Position numbers and translations under genes: made by a program. Source: Candidatus Multivoradales bacterium (lineage in GTDB: Bacteria; Acidobacteriota; Thermoanaerobaculia; Multivoradales; J023). From it: 64,000 bases of DNA. This document shows, piece by piece, positions 5,842 through 62,187 of this stretch; positions within the stretch are counted from its first letter, which is position 1, and every line of letters begins with the position of its first letter. A model generated the notes under the pieces. That model was not told the origin of the DNA. It saw only the letters and a program-made list of their open reading frames with translations, and made no database searches. Location of the stretch: NCBI GenBank assembly GCA_965248925.1, contig CBDFLE010000004.1, positions 64,001 to 128,000 on the forward strand, given 5' to 3'.

Positions 5842-6300
5842 CTAGTCGGGCAGCGCCCTCAGAATATCCATGATGCCGGAGTAGTAGCTGCTCTCCTGTG
5901 GAGAAATCGATTTCATTTTGGAAAAAAAATGTAGGCCTGCCCTCTTGAAAGCTTCGAAAAATTCCATAGAGTACGCCTCAATTTCCTTTGATTCTCCATC
6001 CCACTCTAGCTTCATGACAACTCTCTGTGCCTTCTGAAAGTAGAGCACCGAGATGTCGATAGGCTGATCCGGGAAAGAAGTCGTGGCCTTCCCGTATTTC
6101 TTAGCTCTCGCAAGGCAGTCGACGACAAGTGACCAAAGCACTTCAATCAAGTCGCCATACTCTTCATCCATCAGTGTTCGAGAATCGCTGGAGACAAGAA
6201 GAACTCCGGCCAAGTACTCCGGGTCATGAATAAGCTGATCAAATTCATCCAAGGGAACAAAGTTCCCATTCTGTAGAAGAAGCGTACGAACAGAAACCAT
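5842..6300 (-). CDS. Immunity protein for orphan Rhs toxin 1
   Basis: 152 aa, low GC, TGATG overlap with the toxin stop. Confidence 0.8.
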   Translation of the reverse strand: MVSVRTLLLQNGNFVPLDEFDQLIHDPEYLAGVLLVSSDSRTLMDEEYGDLIEVLWSLVVDCLARAKKYGKATTSFPDQPIDISVLYFQKAQRVVMKLEWDGESKEIEAYSMEFFEAFKRAGLHFFSKMKSISPQESSYYSGIMDILRALPD

Positions 6301-7397
6301 CAGGCAGCACCTTCAGGAAATGCGGTGACGATTCGTCCGCGACGAACCACTACTCGATACACGATTCCATCAACGGTACCTCTCAAGACGACTCTCAAGT
6401 CGCTCCCTAACGCCATCCTGTTTCTGTTCTGCTGCAGCACGGCCCCAATTATCCCGGTGAGATCTTCGATCTTGCTACTGTCCGCAAAGAAACTCTGTAC
6501 TTTTGAGACTGACCCGTCCCAAAATTGGGGGTGATGCCGGCTCAAAATATGAGTCAGACCCTTGCGGTCAAGCTGAACAACGTTCTTTCCAAATCTGAAT
6601 CTTGTTGCTCGTATTCCTCGAGTTGCATTGGCGACTTTCTGTGGGCGAGCTACCCGAAGAAACAGCCTTGATGCCCGGGCAACCTTGACAGAAGCTGATG
6701 CTCCTCCAGGGATCCCAGGTACACTTGTCGCAGCTAAATCTAATGCGAGCGCTACGCTATCAACGATCACGCCACCTACATTTCCTGAGACGATATTCGT
6801 TGCCAAACTGGCAGTGCCGATGCTGACATTCGCTACATCCCAGACGGTTTCTATCGCCCGCCCATCCGGGTCGACAAAATTTATCGGACCGTTGGCACCG
6901 TATGTATATCGATTCCAGCTCTGTGGATGTGGAGTTGTGGCCGACTTCGCCGGATCCACACTCAAAAACCGCCCCACCACCGGGCTGCAATGCCGAGCAT
7001 GCATATAGTCCAGCTCGGAGCGGCTGCCGGTCCCGGTCTTGTCCCGCTCATGACCAGTGAATTTCAGCTGAATCTCATCCGCCCCCGAGTCGGTCGCCTC
7101 CTGGCCAAACGGGAAGTAGCCGTGCAACGCCACCTGCTGTCCGCCTCGGGTGAAGGGGACAGCCCGACGCGGTTTCCAGCTTGAGAGCTGGTAACCCTCT
7201 ATGCCTGTTCTACTTAAGCCTCGCTCGGCCCTACTGCCGGCGGGGTCTTGGTGCTCGAAGGTCCAGAGGCGAGTTTCGGCGTAGCTCGACTCGGAGATCG
7301 GCGCGATCGCTGTTGCCGGCATCGTCACCGCCAGGAGCGCGACGACCAGCCCGAGCGCCATCGTCCAAGTGCTTCTTCCTTTAGCTGCCTGCCTCAT
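6300..7397 (-). CDS. Signal-peptide leader fused in frame to orphan Rhs core and toxin 1 (probable RNase)
   Basis: Hydrophobic N-terminus MALGLVVALLAVTMPATA; Rhs core from TRGGQQVALH to NFVDPDG; tip has HILSRH…IVTAFP. Confidence 0.85.
   Translation of the reverse strand: MRQAAKGRSTWTMALGLVVALLAVTMPATAIAPISESSYAETRLWTFEHQDPAGSRAERGLSRTGIEGYQLSSWKPRRAVPFTRGGQQVALHGYFPFGQEATDSGADEIQLKFTGHERDKTGTGSRSELDYMHARHCSPVVGRFLSVDPAKSATTPHPQSWNRYTYGANGPINFVDPDGRAIETVWDVANVSIGTASLATNIVSGNVGGVIVDSVALALDLAATSVPGIPGGASASVKVARASRLFLRVARPQKVANATRGIRATRFRFGKNVVQLDRKGLTHILSRHHPQFWDGSVSKVQSFFADSSKIEDLTGIIGAVLQQNRNRMALGSDLRVVLRGTVDGIVYRVVVRRGRIVTAFPEGAA
6952..7153. repeat. 202-bp Rhs-core direct repeat (partner 14555-14756); terminal 32 bp identical
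   Basis: Offset 7603 at both ends; about 30 mismatches by manual count; 7122-7153 is identical to 14725-14756. Confidence 0.92.
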
Positions 7398-7478
7398 GCC
7401 GGGCCATTCTACGCCGCGGGTGGCGCTCGAAGACAGCGGCTAAAGGAGGAAGGGTGGTTGGTGCGGAGGCGGGATGCG

Positions 7479-7530
7479 GTTTTCTTAGGCCGCTTTCTTC
7501 GGGCAGTGGGTGTTTTCTTAGGTCGTTTTC
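7479..7530. repeat. Two 19-bp direct repeats, 33-bp period
   Basis: GTTTTCTTAGGCCGCTTTC (7479-7497) and GTTTTCTTAGGTCGTTTTC (7512-7530). Confidence 0.75.
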
Positions 7531-7861
7531 GTTGGGCTGGTCGTCGGAGCGAGCGCGGGTCTTTCCGGCAGTTTGGTGCCGGCGGCACAGAGGGCAGCCG
7601 CCAAACCAATCTGCACGTTGGGGGCGTGGTGGCGGCGGGGCCGGAGCCGAGCACGGCGACCGCAGGGCGCCGCGCGCAGGGTACGGAGGCCACGACGCAG
7701 GGCGGGTCTTGGGAGGAGGATGGGGAGCCCCCTTGAGGGGGCGGACGGGTCCGGGCCGAGCCGTCGCAGTGCAAGTCGGTGGATCTCGGCAAGGAGGCCA
7801 AGAGCGGGGCGTGCTTCCGAAGCCGCTGACCTTCGACGGCCACCAACGTGCTCGCCCCAAG

Positions 7862-7887
7862 TTTCCATAATGCACGCGTTATGGAAA
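7862..7887. other. dif/cer-like candidate tyrosine recombinase site
   Basis: TTTCCATAA-TGCACGCG-TTATGGAAA: perfect 9-bp arms, 8-bp spacer, CATAA/TTATG inner ends as in dif. Confidence 0.7.
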
Positions 7888-7923
7888 GGCCGTAGGCCCG
7901 GAGCCGGGGCGTGTGAGGGCCAG

Positions 7924-7949
7924 GTCGGATAGGGCGCGCACTATCCGAC
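7924..7949. other. Second 9-8-9 palindrome related to the first
   Basis: GTCGGATAG-GGCGCGCA-CTATCCGAC; central 16 bp (reverse complement) match site 1 at 12/16. Confidence 0.6.
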
Positions 7950-8183
7950 AGCGACCCATGCAAGCCGCGTGACATCTGGGAGGTCCGAGGAGGGGCCCAG
8001 GTGGCGCGCGGCTTGCGGAGCGGCTGGCCCGTGCCCGGAGGGAGCGCAGCGACCGGAGGGACACACGCCCCGGCGGAGCTTGGGGCGAGCTTTCGGAGAC
8101 TCTTTTCTTGGACTACCTGAAGCCTCGCTCCGGGCCGGTGATCGGAGGGCTCAGGTGGTGGATCGCAGATGCTCGGGCGGGGG

Positions 8184-16900: not shown

Positions 16901-19002
16901 CCGGTGCAGTCCACCGCCGTCGACTTGCGCAGGCTGCCACTGGCGTAGACGTGGTCGGTGCGGTAGGTCGGGCCGGACAAGCTGAGGCTGCACAAGGAGC
17001 CGGTGCCGAGGTTCTGGGTGTCGCCGCCATAGACCCGCTGGCGGGTGACGAAGCCGTTGCTCGAGGTGAGGAGGCTCACCACGTCGCGGCTCTGGCGATT
17101 GCTACCGGCCAGCTGGCGGCGGCGTTCGAGGAAGCCGGTGGTGCTGCTGAAGCAGAACTCAGCCTTCTCGGTGGTCCCGCCTTCGCTCACCGACTGCTCG
17201 TCCCAGGTCTCCAAGATCCAGCGTGCGTTGTGGCTTGGCAGCACGAAATCGGTTGCCGGATCGATCGAGCTGTCCTCGGGGTTGGCGATGATGTAGGTGC
17301 CGCTGTTGGCGTTGTAGGTGGTGCTGCTGGTGCGCACGTTGGCGGCGCCGAAGCTGCCGCCGGTGGTCATGGTGCGGAAGTGGCCCAGGCCATCGAAGTC
17401 CGAGAAGGTGACTTCGCGGACCTTGCCGCCGTCGTCGTGGAAGGTCTCCTTGCGGTAGCGCAAGCGGTGGGCTTTCTCGTTGTAGTTGCCGGCGTCGCGG
17501 CCATCGCTGTCGAACTCAACGAAGATCGAGCGGAGCTTGGTTCCGCCAGCGTTGAAGAGTTCTTGGGAAAGGAAGGGGCCGGCTTCTGAGAAGCTGCCAC
17601 TGATGGGATCGCAGTAGGTGTAGGGCAGGCCATAGGACCAGCGATTGTTGGCGCCGACGGTGGAGAAATAGCTCACCGTCTCGAAGCCCAGCGGATCAGT
17701 CACTTTCATCGAGTGGAAGCAGGGGTGGCCCAGCGGATCGCCGGGGGCTTGCGGGTTTGCGGTGTCGTAGGTGTAGCTCCAGGTGGCGTAGGGGGTGGTG
17801 TCGCCGTCGTCGAGGAAGAGATGCTTGCTCTTGACTCCCCGCGCCACCGTGCCCCAATCGGGAGCGTGGAAGAGGTCGGCCAGCTGGGTTTGGAAGGGGA
17901 AGAGCTGGTAGTCGTAGCCGTAGGCGCCGCCGGTGGGCAAGCGCAGCTTCGACAAGCCGCCCGAGAGCAGGTTGTCGACAGTCAGGTAGTCCATCTCGTA
18001 GAACGAACCGTCGGGCAACACCACCCGGTCGAGCACCTGGGTGGTGAGGGTGTGCTCGGCTATCGGCACGCAGCCGGGACGGAAGCCGAACTGCCGTTCT
18101 AGAGTTTCGGTGCGGTACTGAAAGAGGAAGGTCGAGTTGCTTTGGCTGCCGAAGGCTTCGAGCCTCACCGTAGCGACTCTGCCACCGACAAAATCCACCG
18201 TGTGAGTGCGCCCTTGGCTGTCGGTCAATGTCCAGTCGCCATCGTTGGCATAGCGCACATTGATCCAATTGCCGAAGCGATCCTCCATCCGCGTCAGGCG
18301 CCAGAGATCGCCGACGGAGGCGTAGTTATGGAACTCATGCAGCTCGCCGCCAGAAAATTCTACCGTGTAGCAGCTCTGATCGACAAAGGTGCCAGACGGC
18401 AGCTCGCACACCCCCGGATTGCGCTTGCGTAGACGGAGGTACGTGCTGTCGTTGGTGAACCAGGTGCTGGGCTGCGGTGTCGCCGGGAAGCCGCCGGGAT
18501 GCAGCTCGGTATAAAACCTGTGCTCGCCGCCACTTGGATCGACGTAAATCTCAGGCGTTGTCGTCGGACTGTTACGTGGCGCGATCAGCTCTCCTAGGCT
18601 GACTCTCCAGCCGAAGCCGGCCTGCGTCTTGAGATCCTGGATCGGCAGGCTGTAGGTACGCAGCGCGAAGGGCGGATTGATGTCTTGACATTGGTGATTC
18701 TCATCGTACTCCCAGCCACCGGAGCTGTACGAGGCGGTCAGGCTGAAGCTGAGCGACGGGCCGACCGGATAGGTGATGCCGATCGGTAGAGATACGGTCA
18801 GGCTGCCGTTGAAGAGATTGATCTGATCCAGGTCGCCAATCTGGTAGGCGGTGTCGGCGGTCACTCCGCGCTGGTGGCTCGGGGGGAGTTGCGCGGTCAG
18901 CGGCAGGGCGATGCAGAGGCCGAGAAGTAAGAAGCTGAGAGGCAGAATCTGCCACGTCTGAAGTAGGAGATATTCGGTACTGAGGAAAAATTTTCGGTGC
19001 AT
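13912..19002 (-). CDS. Full-length Rhs/YD-repeat polymorphic toxin with Sec-type signal peptide
   Basis: YD repeats, HLDHLGTPR…PVVGRFLSVDP…VDPDGR core; N-terminal FLLLGLCIALPLTAQ; tip ends YGG…DWAK…FEVHAY…ELKTK. Confidence 0.95.
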   Translation of the reverse strand: MHRKFFLSTEYLLLQTWQILPLSFLLLGLCIALPLTAQLPPSHQRGVTADTAYQIGDLDQINLFNGSLTVSLPIGITYPVGPSLSFSLTASYSSGGWEYDENHQCQDINPPFALRTYSLPIQDLKTQAGFGWRVSLGELIAPRNSPTTTPEIYVDPSGGEHRFYTELHPGGFPATPQPSTWFTNDSTYLRLRKRNPGVCELPSGTFVDQSCYTVEFSGGELHEFHNYASVGDLWRLTRMEDRFGNWINVRYANDGDWTLTDSQGRTHTVDFVGGRVATVRLEAFGSQSNSTFLFQYRTETLERQFGFRPGCVPIAEHTLTTQVLDRVVLPDGSFYEMDYLTVDNLLSGGLSKLRLPTGGAYGYDYQLFPFQTQLADLFHAPDWGTVARGVKSKHLFLDDGDTTPYATWSYTYDTANPQAPGDPLGHPCFHSMKVTDPLGFETVSYFSTVGANNRWSYGLPYTYCDPISGSFSEAGPFLSQELFNAGGTKLRSIFVEFDSDGRDAGNYNEKAHRLRYRKETFHDDGGKVREVTFSDFDGLGHFRTMTTGGSFGAANVRTSSTTYNANSGTYIIANPEDSSIDPATDFVLPSHNARWILETWDEQSVSEGGTTEKAEFCFSSTTGFLERRRQLAGSNRQSRDVVSLLTSSNGFVTRQRVYGGDTQNLGTGSLCSLSLSGPTYRTDHVYASGSLRKSTAVDCTGTAILTLADYDIDSDTGLVATSRDAAGLGTSFTYDRLGRLTGQRPAELGWTQWTYTLPTTANPGLAPKLTEQQCQPFQTSCSGTDLMSFREHRYDGLGRRLQETVRIPVANAGQTELWHRYTTWNPRHWKTDESVWTTASAAGESRRTTYLAYDRFGRPGRVKPPEQPATFFTYQGDRVQTRRFKVQLTSGQQDTYVTEIMDGQGRLAEVCEGSSAAWSGSCGGGGLLTRYSYDDGGRLTKVCQNLSGSTCGQTRLFDYDGRGFLLSETHPEIGPSGNGRIDYRFDAGGNAISKDLIGSTAFDLSFDFDAAGRLIRVLESSNGVGSTPRLQKQFRYARTNSGSDHRAGKLVQTVRHNWVDIQNPLAPEPGSLDVKLSESFRYTGRQGLMSEKQTRYQFFAGNYAFTTGFVYDTQGNLSQLDYPSCQHADGGCATNDPQRTVNFNYEKGMLRSVPGFANNLTYQSGGMLHQLTHGDGVVDTQEVSSSNGLARPHQLTTSAGWSSGIFAYDGAGNISAIGNLDYRYDRLGRLRSGQTSVGATRFTQTATYDNFGNIQQLSTPGFAALNLNPNATTNRLGLSGAQYDAAGNLTDITLGSESFDYAFDGANMMKHLRSNTDQARVFIYNASDERILTFDCFGPGATSTCTTQPASLTWTLRGLGNEVLRVYDQPAGGAFSWSRDYVHRGGQPLATIEPEGSGGEMTSHLHLDHLGTPRQITRGGQQVALHNYYPFGQEATNLAQDEVVLKFTGHERDKTGTGVRSELDYMHARHCSPVVGRFLSVDPSLGSRSSPQSWNRFSYVSNSPINQVDPDGRLGFLVTAFLGGVVDVGIQIASNALSGEELTTGVAGAFVTGAVAGATGLGLLKVAGRGAKLVGAVRNAKKLKKSAAAADAARAGADGTAGARSAANRLRLQKQLASEQQVGELANGGGRTIAGAGGRVPIRDVDRLARQYGGSRGDWAKIRSSNFKAADGASFEVHAYRNVRTGEIVELKTKFQ

Positions 19003-19198
19003 CTCTTCACCCTTCCGTTGGTTTGGCGGCTTGGTTGCCTCCAGGGCAGCAAGTGCCAGCATTTGCTTACACTATCTATAGGCGCAGGAAGAGCCAAGAA
19101 GTTACAAGCTTTCATTATTTGGTGGTTTCTACTGTAGTTTTTCCAGATTTGCGTCACCGAGAGAGCTGCAATCGGTGCCTTGGGGCCTAGCCCCCCGC

Positions 19199-61275: not shown

Positions 61276-62187
61276 ATGCGCTACGTGGTCGGCATCGATG
61301 CCGGTGGCAGCAAAGCCATGGCGCAGCTCGCTGATGCTGAGGGCAAGATCCTGCGGCAGGCTCGGGTGCCGGGGGTCAACTTGCATTTGGCTGGCGCCGA
61401 GCGGGTAGAGCAGATGCTCAGTCAAGTGTTGGCGGAGCTGGCGCCGCCAACACTTGCTGCCCTCTGCCTGGGAAGTGCTGGGATCGGTCGGCCTCGAGAT
61501 CGGCGGCAGCTGGAGGAAATTCTTCGCCGACTGCCGTTAGTGAGCTGCCCGATCCGGGTCGAGAGTGATGCTCTGGCGGCCTTGTGGGCTGGCGCCGCCG
61601 ATGGCATTGGCATCGTCGTCGTCGCCGGCACCGGCTCGATCGCCTACGGTGTCGATGGCGGCAGTCAGACGGCGCGCGCCGGCGGTTGGGGTTACCTGCT
61701 CGGTGACGAAGGCTCGGCCTATTGGCTGGGCCACGCGGCGTTGCGGCGGGGGATTCGGGCAGCGGATGGTCGGGGTCCTGCTTCCAGCTTTGGCGAGCGG
61801 GTTGCGCGGCGTCTGGGCCTGGAGGTTCCTTCCGGCCTGGTGTCTTGGTTTTATGACCAGGAGCAGCCCCGTCAGCGCGTCGCCGAGTTGGCGCCGCTGG
61901 TGGAAGAGGCGGCGATCGAGGGCGACGAGTCGGCGGTCGAGCTGCTCGACGAGGCGGCCTTGCATCTGGCGCGGGCGGCGCGTTCGGTAGCCGGCCAACT
62001 GGCTTTCAGCGCCCCATTCCCGCTGATCCTGGCAGGCGGCGCCTTCCGCGCTTGCCCCAGCTTGCACTCGAGGCTGCGCCAGGTGGTGGACCTACCGCTC
62101 GCCCGAGTCGAGCTATTGTCGGACGAGCCCGCCCTTGGCGCCGTGCGCCTGGCGCTTACTTTGTTGCCAATGGACCCGGTTACCTAG
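61276..62187 (+). CDS. BadF/BadG-family N-acetylhexosamine kinase
   Basis: GIDAGGSK, AGTGS, GGWGYLLGDEGS. Confidence 0.9.
   Translation: MRYVVGIDAGGSKAMAQLADAEGKILRQARVPGVNLHLAGAERVEQMLSQVLAELAPPTLAALCLGSAGIGRPRDRRQLEEILRRLPLVSCPIRVESDALAALWAGAADGIGIVVVAGTGSIAYGVDGGSQTARAGGWGYLLGDEGSAYWLGHAALRRGIRAADGRGPASSFGERVARRLGLEVPSGLVSWFYDQEQPRQRVAELAPLVEEAAIEGDESAVELLDEAALHLARAARSVAGQLAFSAPFPLILAGGAFRACPSLHSRLRQVVDLPLARVELLSDEPALGAVRLALTLLPMDPVT

Follow-up and report, generated by a model that had tools for sequence, protein, structure and literature searches.

Two palindromes within a conserved folded element

The window analysed here is a stretch of 64,000 nucleotides (nt) of Candidatus Multivoradales bacterium, a member of the Acidobacteriota (positions 64,001 to 128,000 of contig CBDFLE010000004.1, assembly GCA_965248925.1). 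On its minus strand it carries a gene for an Xer-like tyrosine recombinase of 357 amino acids (aa; 8184-9257) and, further along, a toxin-carrying cargo gene, and between the two lies a region containing a pair of perfect palindromes, each with 9-nt arms and an 8-nt spacer. On the plus strand these are site 1 (7862-7887, TTTCCATAA-TGCACGCG-TTATGGAAA) and site 2 (7924-7949, GTCGGATAG-GGCGCGCA-CTATCCGAC). An earlier note on this DNA had described such a pair, 62 base pairs (bp) apart and with spacers that are nearly the inverse of each other. The pair is there, with its centres 62 nt apart, and lies far above chance expectation: the window holds four perfect 9-8-9 palindromes against a mean of 0.46 in 1000 mononucleotide shuffles, none of which had four or more, or two within 100 nt. 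The spacer relation is true of the window, where the reverse complement of the site 2 spacer (TGCGCGCC) equals the site 1 spacer at 6 of 8 positions in direct reading, but it is not kept in other genomes, in which the spacers differ in both length and sequence. Across the genome (G000; 7.98 Mb in 6 contigs) the 20-nt core of site 1 occurs 12 times, every time within a copy of the element described below. The perfect symmetry of site 2 is peculiar to the window copy, 1 of 12 as judged on the copies aligned; in the other aligned genomic copies the right arm reads CTATCGGAC, which gives a G.G mismatch in the hairpin form. The remaining two palindromes of the window are at 13499-13524 and 61427-61452, and the former, just 3' of a 107-aa open reading frame (ORF) that follows an Rhs gene, could be a terminator.

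Both palindromes are helices of a larger, conserved and strand-specific fold of about 240 nt, here named S (7850-8090, plus strand). In order, it consists of an outer helix P1, hairpin 1, a small hairpin, P2, P3, hairpin 2 and P4. P1 is formed by 14 pairs between 7850-7863 and 8077-8090. Hairpin 1 is site 1, with a stem of 7 bp that is common to homologues (7864-7870/7879-7885). The small hairpin GGCC-GTA-GGCC (7888-7898) shows covariation from CG to GC, and its loop is a triloop of the C(GNA)G type in most lineages; a GNA-type loop is called 'extraordinarily stable' in the account of the DNA hairpin of a filamentous-phage origin given in 10.1101/2023.12.30.573655. P2 pairs 7903-7915 with 8062-8074 (13 bp), the 5' strand of P3 (7917-7923) pairs with about 8024-8030, and hairpin 2 is site 2. 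P4 is a long hairpin (7960-8016, arms 7960-7980/7996-8016) with a conserved GCAAG...GTGAC motif. The palindromes are thus enclosed by nested inverted repeats at 7850-7861/8079-8090, 7903-7915/8062-8074 and 7960-7980/7996-8016. In two near-identical copies on low-GC metagenome contigs with a Rep_3 gene (L161 and L144) the P4 loop is reverse-complemented (GGTGAAAGT vs ACTTTCACC), a flip-flop of the kind that is produced by DNA-level events at inverted repeats. A possible loop pseudoknot, or RNA-guided targeting, by way of complementarity between the hairpin 1 loop and 7968-7973 was considered and rejected, as that complementarity was not seen, by eye, in other lineages.

The fold and its strand bias are solid. 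With RNA parameters the plus strand folds at -174.6 kcal/mol (z -5.6; no shuffle folded as well) and the minus strand at -156.6 kcal/mol (z -4.75), and with DNA parameters the z values are -6.9 and -6.8, respectively, again with no shuffle matching the plus-strand fold. In all 13 homologues compared, S is more stable on the plus strand, by 3.5 to 29.5 kcal/mol. The long-range helices show compensatory changes across phyla: RNAalifold predicted 49 pairs from 8 sequences, 13 of them with compensatory changes, and a 13-sequence alignment gave such changes in 13 of 31 pairs. In P1, 8 of the 14 pairs have changed on both sides among the 13 sequences and one T.G (U.G) wobble is invariant (13/13). 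Pairs of G with T or U are frequent on the plus strand, and no A.C pair types occur among the pairs listed for 8 sequences. Among 22 distinct sequences, both-side changes were seen in 8 of the 16 hairpin pairs (0 of 500 shuffles reached the observed score), and 91% of alignment cells pair, a figure biased towards pairing by the fitting of this alignment to a covariance model. Hairpin 2 carries the G.G mismatch in 19 of the 22, and the window copy is among the three that pair at this position. A covariance model of the 5' half of S (R1; 115 positions), built from 11 sequences excluding this genome, detects the window copy at 73.2 bits (E 1.7e-17). S is thus a well-supported conserved structured motif with no match in Rfam 15, and would be so even if it were an RNA or a priming signal.

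One rival explanation is that S acts as a structured non-coding RNA read from the plus strand, convergent with the recombinase gene and serving, e.g., as a regulator of replication or of recombinase expression. The palindromes would then be ordinary RNA hairpins. Such an RNA would account for the compensatory long-range helices, the invariant U.G pair and the other G.U pairs, and the four-way junction, as well as for an orientation relative to the neighbouring gene that is fixed in every context seen. Regulatory RNAs are common in plasmid replication modules, and in two Myxococcota copies a TATAAT or TAAAAT box lies about 20 nt before P1. On the other hand, a search around S in the window turned up neither a sigma-70-like promoter nor a terminator, and Rfam 15, searched over S in the window and in 13 loci, gave no match at the gathering threshold or at E<=1; the sole hit at E<=10 within 7300-8300 is to an implausible microRNA family (mir-326, 7425-7504, 21.3 bits against a threshold of 66). 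Triloops dominate among the loops, which also speaks against an RNA, as does a property of hairpin 2: in most lineages its spacer is self-complementary nearly to the centre, past what a hairpin loop can pair. An RNA function is rated as unlikely, although all the structural features would suit it as well.

Likeness of the stems to dif arms

The sequences of the two hairpin stems point in another direction. A pattern search of the genome for left-arm and right-arm motifs around a 6-bp centre returned a single dif-like 28-mer (C5:819851, minus strand), which is the candidate host dif. The cumulative GC skew of contig C5 peaks nearby, at about 790 kb, as expected for a terminus, and the skew minimum of contig C6 near 2.71 Mb marks the likely origin. 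Dif-like sites were also found in four of five relatives searched (G013, G016, G052 and G060, with none found in G009), and these share a left-arm core GTC(C/T)GATAA and a right arm TTATGT(A/C)AA(C/G)T. Compared with the left-arm core GTCCGATAA, the reverse complement of the 3' arm of hairpin 2 is identical (9 of 9 positions) in 7 of 22 sequences and has at least 8 matching positions in 20 of the 22, while the 5' arm departs from the core at the position of the G.G mismatch. For hairpin 1, the 3' arm with its flank matches the right arm at 7-9 of 11 positions in all 20 sequences compared; on the other side, the reverse complement of 7860-7870 (AGTTTCCATAA) equals the right arm of the relatives at 10 of 11 positions, and the equivalent segment of locus L058 at all 11. 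Read together, the invariant P1 segment AAGTT and the 5' arm of hairpin 1 that comes after it look like the complement of the right arm.

The identity of the two stems with dif arms is likewise solid. From these matches, site 1 is read as an inverted pair of right-arm (XerD-type) arms and site 2 as an inverted pair of left-arm (XerC-type) arms. Folding recreates duplex arms, the stem of hairpin 2 giving the left-arm core and hairpin 1 together with P1 giving the right arm with one T.G wobble. In the modelled structure, P1 stacked on hairpin 1 would rebuild the full right-arm duplex with the invariant T.G inside it. What the earlier note said of dif/cer-type arms therefore holds as far as the arms themselves are concerned: they are about 11 bp long and related to the host dif arms. 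It does not hold for the palindromes as sites, since each has two arms of the same type and neither places a left-type and a right-type arm around a single central region. For the RNA explanation the likeness to dif would have to be fortuitous, or S an RNA decoy; the stems are conserved as sequence across phyla and match dif arms, and a purely structural helix needs neither.

The loops would sit in the place of the central region, and their lengths differ between the two hairpins. According to PMC5357621, dif has 11-bp half-sites and a 6-bp centre, with 6-8 bp being normal for dif regions. In hairpin 1 the distance from the ATAA box to the TTAT box varies from 4 to 10 nt among 20 sequences; a metagenome copy with arms identical to those of the window (L149) has 5 nt, and the gammaproteobacterial examples have 65 nt (two Pseudomonas-group loci) and 50 nt (a Lonsdalea plasmid). 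Because this variation goes beyond 6-8 bp, hairpin 1 is not a canonical duplex crossover site, and since a hairpin tolerates variation in loop length and a duplex core does not, the variation favours a hairpin. Hairpin 2 is more regular: its spacer measures 6-8 nt in all 22 sequences compared, against 9 nt in L149, and site 2 alone (6-9 nt) would pass for a site with a central region of fixed length. Its centre positions covary, so that complementarity persists.

The view taken in the earlier note was that both palindromes are ordinary duplex core sites of a homomeric recombinase, with crossover in the spacer resolving multimers or tandem arrays. Site 2 supports it, as the spacer length fits the usual 6-8 bp of PMC5357621 and the G.G 'mismatch' is easily understood as a difference that is conserved between the arms of a duplex site. 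The gene for the recombinase lies adjacent, as xerS does to difSL in that source, and both tandem arrays and a plasmid form of the element exist. One genomic copy (C6:3509111) is a recombinant whose breakpoint, from the haplotype blocks of 8 copies, falls between 7854 and 7975; it is the only such recombinant, however, and mosaic exchange is general across the unit in these 8 copies, so that a recombination hotspot at the sites was rejected. The same-type arms, the wobbles and compensatory changes in the pairing, the variable spacer of site 1 (up to 50 and 65 nt) and the covariation that keeps the centre of hairpin 2 complementary all count against duplex crossover sites, and such sites leave both the strand bias and the covarying helices P1-P3 unexplained. 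Embedded as they are in a larger covarying fold, the palindromes are hard to maintain as crossover sites, and this explanation is now regarded as improbable.

The surrounding unit and the distribution of S

The protein of the recombinase gene next to S is Xer-like, with 429.4 bits against NCBIfam NF002331 'XerC' (cut-off 371), a Pfam Phage_integrase catalytic domain (2e-36), and XerD (1a0p, 5e-39) as its best solved relative. It scores under the equivalog cut-offs for XerC and XerD proper (219 vs 335 and 214 vs 330). Upstream of it lies a gene for a 1054-aa protein (9257-12421, minus strand) in which a DnaG-type primase, with zinc finger and Toprim domains, is fused to a C-terminal half of P-loop type; this is likely the replicase of the element. 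A full Rhs gene follows at 13912-19062 (minus strand). On the other side of S is the cargo ORF (6300-7397, minus strand; 365 aa), which joins a signal-peptide leader supplied by the element to the terminal part of an Rhs core and to a toxin tip with weak matches to Ntox10 and EndoU.

Next to S lies region U (7154-7849), a conserved non-coding and leader region that includes the leader of the cargo ORF and its start at 7397, a GC hairpin at about 7723-7750 and iteron-like motifs of the TTTAGC(C/T)GC type (7372-7388, 7436-7452, 7479-7504 and 7512-7537). Two copies of the motif in inverted orientation often flank the start codon of the cargo, whose first codons (Ala-Ala-Lys) then fall within the motif. 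In a comparison of 8 copies, segment 7154-7749 varies at one site and the recombinase gene at more. The hairpin at 7723-7750, GGGGAGCCCCC...GGGGGCGGACGGG, is a conserved non-coding feature flanking S in the window and in homologous loci; just past the recombinase stop codon, a G-tract motif of the GGGCGGGCGGGGG kind (8165-8183) is likewise conserved in homologous loci.

The recombinase is present in 14 copies in the genome (81% identity or more) and S in 12, each beside a recombinase. S had been thought internal to the element and not at its ends, and this is borne out: it lies inside a unit of about 7.6 kb made up of cargo tip, immunity gene, small ORFs, primase, recombinase, S and leader. 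Many units stand in tandem arrays with a spacing of 7.5-10 kb and adjoin Rhs genes. The regions concerned are 6952-14756 of the window and C5:921000-989000 and C6:3491000-3519500 of the genome. The unit has a full Rhs gene on one side and 'orphan' genes for Rhs C-termini on the other, and it forms arrays of up to 8 units, each with a different toxin tip and a putative immunity gene. This arrangement suggests an element that brings in new Rhs tips and displaces the previous ones. In 9 of 9 aligned orphan copies the leader meets the final ~290 bp of the Rhs core at 7153/7154, and in a divergent copy it is joined to a much longer Rhs fragment. The leader/Rhs junction is identical and sharp in the nine copies (...GTCCCCT|TCACCCGAGG...; 7153/7154 vs 14756), and its flanks, GCTGTCC ... 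GGACAGC, form an imperfect 10-8-10 inverted repeat that may be a candidate duplex core site.

Two of the 14 unit copies lack S, by different deletions near the stem bases, one of them between CGCCCC direct repeats, and both keep open recombinase frames. The CGAAGCC-like repeats that flank S raised the possibility that S is an independent insertion that duplicated its target, but the S-less copies are different internal deletions and not precise excisions, and this was rejected. In two copies an IS3-family element of 1.64 kb (HTH_Tnp_1 and rve) is inserted at 7861-7863, which was taken as incidental. DNA reads from four runs of one sample show the depth of a multi-copy element and the deletion joint 7852->8066 of copy C6:1349554.

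Beyond this genome, homologous recombinases (E<=1e-60) were found in 10 of 60 related genomes searched. S lies 3' of the recombinase, on the opposite strand, in seven of the ten (G009, G016, G052, G045, G013, G060 and G047), while the flanks retrieved for G011, G033 and G044 (for the last, 300 nt) showed no S. The G045 copy is truncated at its 5' end. Here (L118, G045:C170, ~5900) the homology to S begins inside the hairpin 1 loop, with host glycosyltransferase (PMT_2) and TPR genes upstream, and the break could stem from truncation or mark a junction made by recombination at hairpin 1. The host side of the break is unlike a dif arm and the other end lies beyond the contig, and this single case was left uninterpreted. 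A wider, protein-based scan of contigs gave 75 recombinase loci, with tandem units common, and the phyla that carry the element family are Acidobacteriota, Myxococcota, Planctomycetota, Verrucomicrobiota, Actinomycetota and Pseudomonadota. In 72 of the 75, the recombinase is directly preceded by a primase match. S was detected in 10 (R1, E<=1e-4), leaving 65 without detectable S; hairpin-1-like motifs are somewhat commoner, and TTTAGC(C/T)GC, present within 1.5 kb downstream of the recombinase in roughly 40 loci by hand count, is more widespread than S. No conservation in homologous elements had been named in advance as grounds for giving up the sites, and the hairpins are in fact conserved beside homologous recombinases in the seven related genomes and these ten wider loci.

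Locus L126 is a circular 11.3-kb plasmid of Lonsdalea populi, NZ_CP072857.1, with xerC, a primase, a helix-turn-helix gene, SymE, toxin/immunity modules and a second, partial unit. Because this plasmid consists of such modules, the element family is plasmid-like. Its non-coding region (10255-11289) contains, by eye, the hairpin-1-like motif with the 50-nt insert; R1 gave nothing above 7.3 bits on the plasmid, and a blastn search of the PLSDB plasmids with S was negative. The SymR antitoxin RNA has matches close to its threshold (50-54 bits vs a gathering score of 61) in L126 (5223-5295 and 9243-9315), L084 (219-291) and L085 (3121-3193), and both of those in L126 are just upstream of symE-like genes that precede primase genes. 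On a Ralstonia megaplasmid, the primase-recombinase pair has a 1715-aa ORF on one side and on the other a fragment whose first 60 residues, inspected by eye, show YD repeats of the Rhs type.

S also occurs where this recombinase was not detected. Of 150 other genomes sampled evenly from the phylum, 2 contain S. In one of them, G197 (L142, G197:C221, 4325-8583), an island next to hisD holds S together with another, different tyrosine recombinase (34% identity over the catalytic part), an RES-Xre toxin-antitoxin pair and a 293-aa homologue of IS200-like Y1 transposases. A pattern scan of metagenome contigs that was independent of the recombinase found 33 S loci: 14 have a recombinase homologue immediately beside S in the arrangement of the window, 6 have less than 120 nt on that side, and 13 have at least 500 nt there with no recombinase homologue detected. 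Pfam searches of the ORFs of eight of these 13 placed a Rep_3 plasmid replication initiator in that position in five, on contigs of about 30% G+C. Beside Rep_3 the whole architecture of S is kept, with P1 and P2 fully covaried.

This distribution raises the question of a role in replication, S being a single-strand initiation or priming site, or an origin accessory, whose hairpins are recognised by the primase-helicase of the element or by host priming proteins. Complementary-strand origins and other initiation signals of single-stranded DNA are hairpin clusters of about 150-250 nt that act on one strand and lie beside replication genes. They are not known to copy dif arms. S adjoins two unrelated kinds of replication gene, the primase-helicase (next to the recombinase in nearly all of the 75 loci) and Rep_3 (in five of the eight loci analysed); iteron-like repeats and a nearly invariant non-coding region lie next to it, and a relative of the element is a circular plasmid. 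The strand-specific fold also has GNA triloops, as does the filamentous-phage origin according to 10.1101/2023.12.30.573655. A replication signal leaves the copying of dif arms by the stems unexplained, however, and most members of the family do without S, as do the two S-less copies of this genome. In the G197 island, moreover, S stands beside the RES-Xre pair, with no replication gene among the 9 ORFs scanned. A replication signal is also held to be improbable.

A proposed folded strand presenting Xer arms

The reading that is favoured, tentatively and with somewhat less than even confidence, is that S is a folded-DNA 'split dif' site, which presents Xer arms as hairpins and is carried by a plasmid-like, toxin-carrying mobile element. 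S would be a portable folded element of ~190-250 nt in which each hairpin is an inverted duplication of one dif-type arm. The plus strand could fold either as single-stranded DNA or as an extruded cruciform, with loops in the place of the central region of a normal site, and would present the arms to the Xer-like recombinase of the element, to host XerC/XerD, or to both. The reaction may be recombination between copies of S, or of S with a dif-like duplex, by which the units of tandem arrays or plasmid multimers would be resolved or excised. Alternatively, it may be a single-strand integration that is completed by replication, as with CTXphi attP(+) and integron attC. Folded single strands are known as substrates of Xer and integron recombinases (PMC3442271, PMC4792948), and the deletions at stem bases by which S was lost are counted as fitting a folded DNA. 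That the molecule is DNA, that Xer proteins bind it, and what kind of reaction follows, we infer. A function in DNA is preferred, again as a possibility falling a little short of even, because Xer-family proteins bind DNA and because the arm sequences are conserved in hosts from 30% to 68% G+C. The broader proposal, that plasmid-like replicons (those with a primase-helicase and Xer, which bear signal-peptide or Rhs toxin tips, and Rep_3 plasmids) use S to recombine with each other or with duplex Xer sites, is more doubtful.

Several observations weigh against a folded 'split dif' site. S is intact and internal in all 12 genomic copies and is therefore not the junction of integrated copies. Since most of the wider loci have no detectable S, the orthologous recombinases there must use another site. 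The arms stand in two separate hairpins 36 nt apart and not in one stem of arm, centre and arm, and in the secondary structure the inner ends of the two hairpins point away from each other. The invariant wobble, the several G.U pairs and the multi-helix junction would equally suit a structured RNA, and the presence of S beside Rep_3 with no recombinase detected, while it fits the use of host Xer proteins, equally fits a role in replication. No circle junction or recombination product was found in the DNA reads, a search limited to the contigs and to four runs. Finally, the naming of the arms, with the left taken to be that of XerC and the right that of XerD, is our assumption by analogy with E. 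coli.

Among known systems, S is assigned to the folded-strand sites of the Xer and integron type, as a variant. It has a conserved, strand-specific fold, and duplex arms that arise by folding, and lacks the one continuous stem of such sites. The nearest parallel is CTXphi attP(+), as described in PMC3442271 and PMC5357621, in which dif-like arms become a substrate upon folding of one strand; strand specificity, tandem arrays and the use of Xer enzymes are common to both. In CTXphi, two inverted full dif-like sites pair to give arm, centre and arm in one stem, whereas in S each type of arm pairs with itself, giving two hairpins on a multi-helix scaffold; and the element that carries S is not a filamentous phage and has its own Xer-like recombinase and primase-helicase. 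Integron attC sites (PMC5027507, PMC4792948) are also defined by structure and variable in sequence, lie on a folded strand beside a tyrosine recombinase, have conserved mismatches and build cassette arrays. An attC site, however, is a single imperfect hairpin with both binding boxes, while the 'cassettes' around S are whole units of 7-10 kb, each with its own recombinase, and that of the window is far below the integron integrase cut-off (100.6 vs 265 bits).

With dif, cer and psi, and with the single-recombinase modules xerS-difSL and xerH-difH of PMC5357621, S shares arms that match the host dif and a recombinase gene adjacent to the putative site; unlike them, it has no core of left arm, centre and right arm, its spacers vary, and it is part of a covarying fold. 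It resembles the initiation signals of single-stranded DNA phages and plasmids in being a cluster of hairpins on one strand next to replication genes, and in its GNA triloops (for the loop type, 10.1101/2023.12.30.573655). A different kind of likeness is to the rAID and polyimmunity loci, in which a tyrosine or Xer-type recombinase lies beside polymorphic toxin/immunity arrays with conserved intergenic motifs (10.1101/2025.05.03.651265, PMC3482391); recombinases of the XerC/D type are reported next to polyimmunity loci in PMC3482391, and in the available text of these two sources the recombinase-adjacent toxin/immunity arrays are described with no site being named. The rAID arrays have one recombinase for an array of short genes, whereas here each unit repeats the recombinase, the primase-helicase, S and a cargo of leader, toxin and immunity gene, and the element, unlike those arrays, has a plasmid form. 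In the literature searched on Rhs, Xer, primases and folded sites, supplementary locus lists aside, no published description of the S fold or of dif arms split between hairpins was found.

If S is indeed a 'split dif' site, it would belong to the apparatus by which toxin and immunity units are assembled into tandem arrays beside rhs, and would thereby offer a mechanism for the displacement of Rhs C-termini. It would also provide a concrete cis-site for the growth of orphan Rhs toxin/immunity arrays, and would extend folded-strand Xer recombination past the filamentous phages and integrons to a plasmid-like family present in many phyla.

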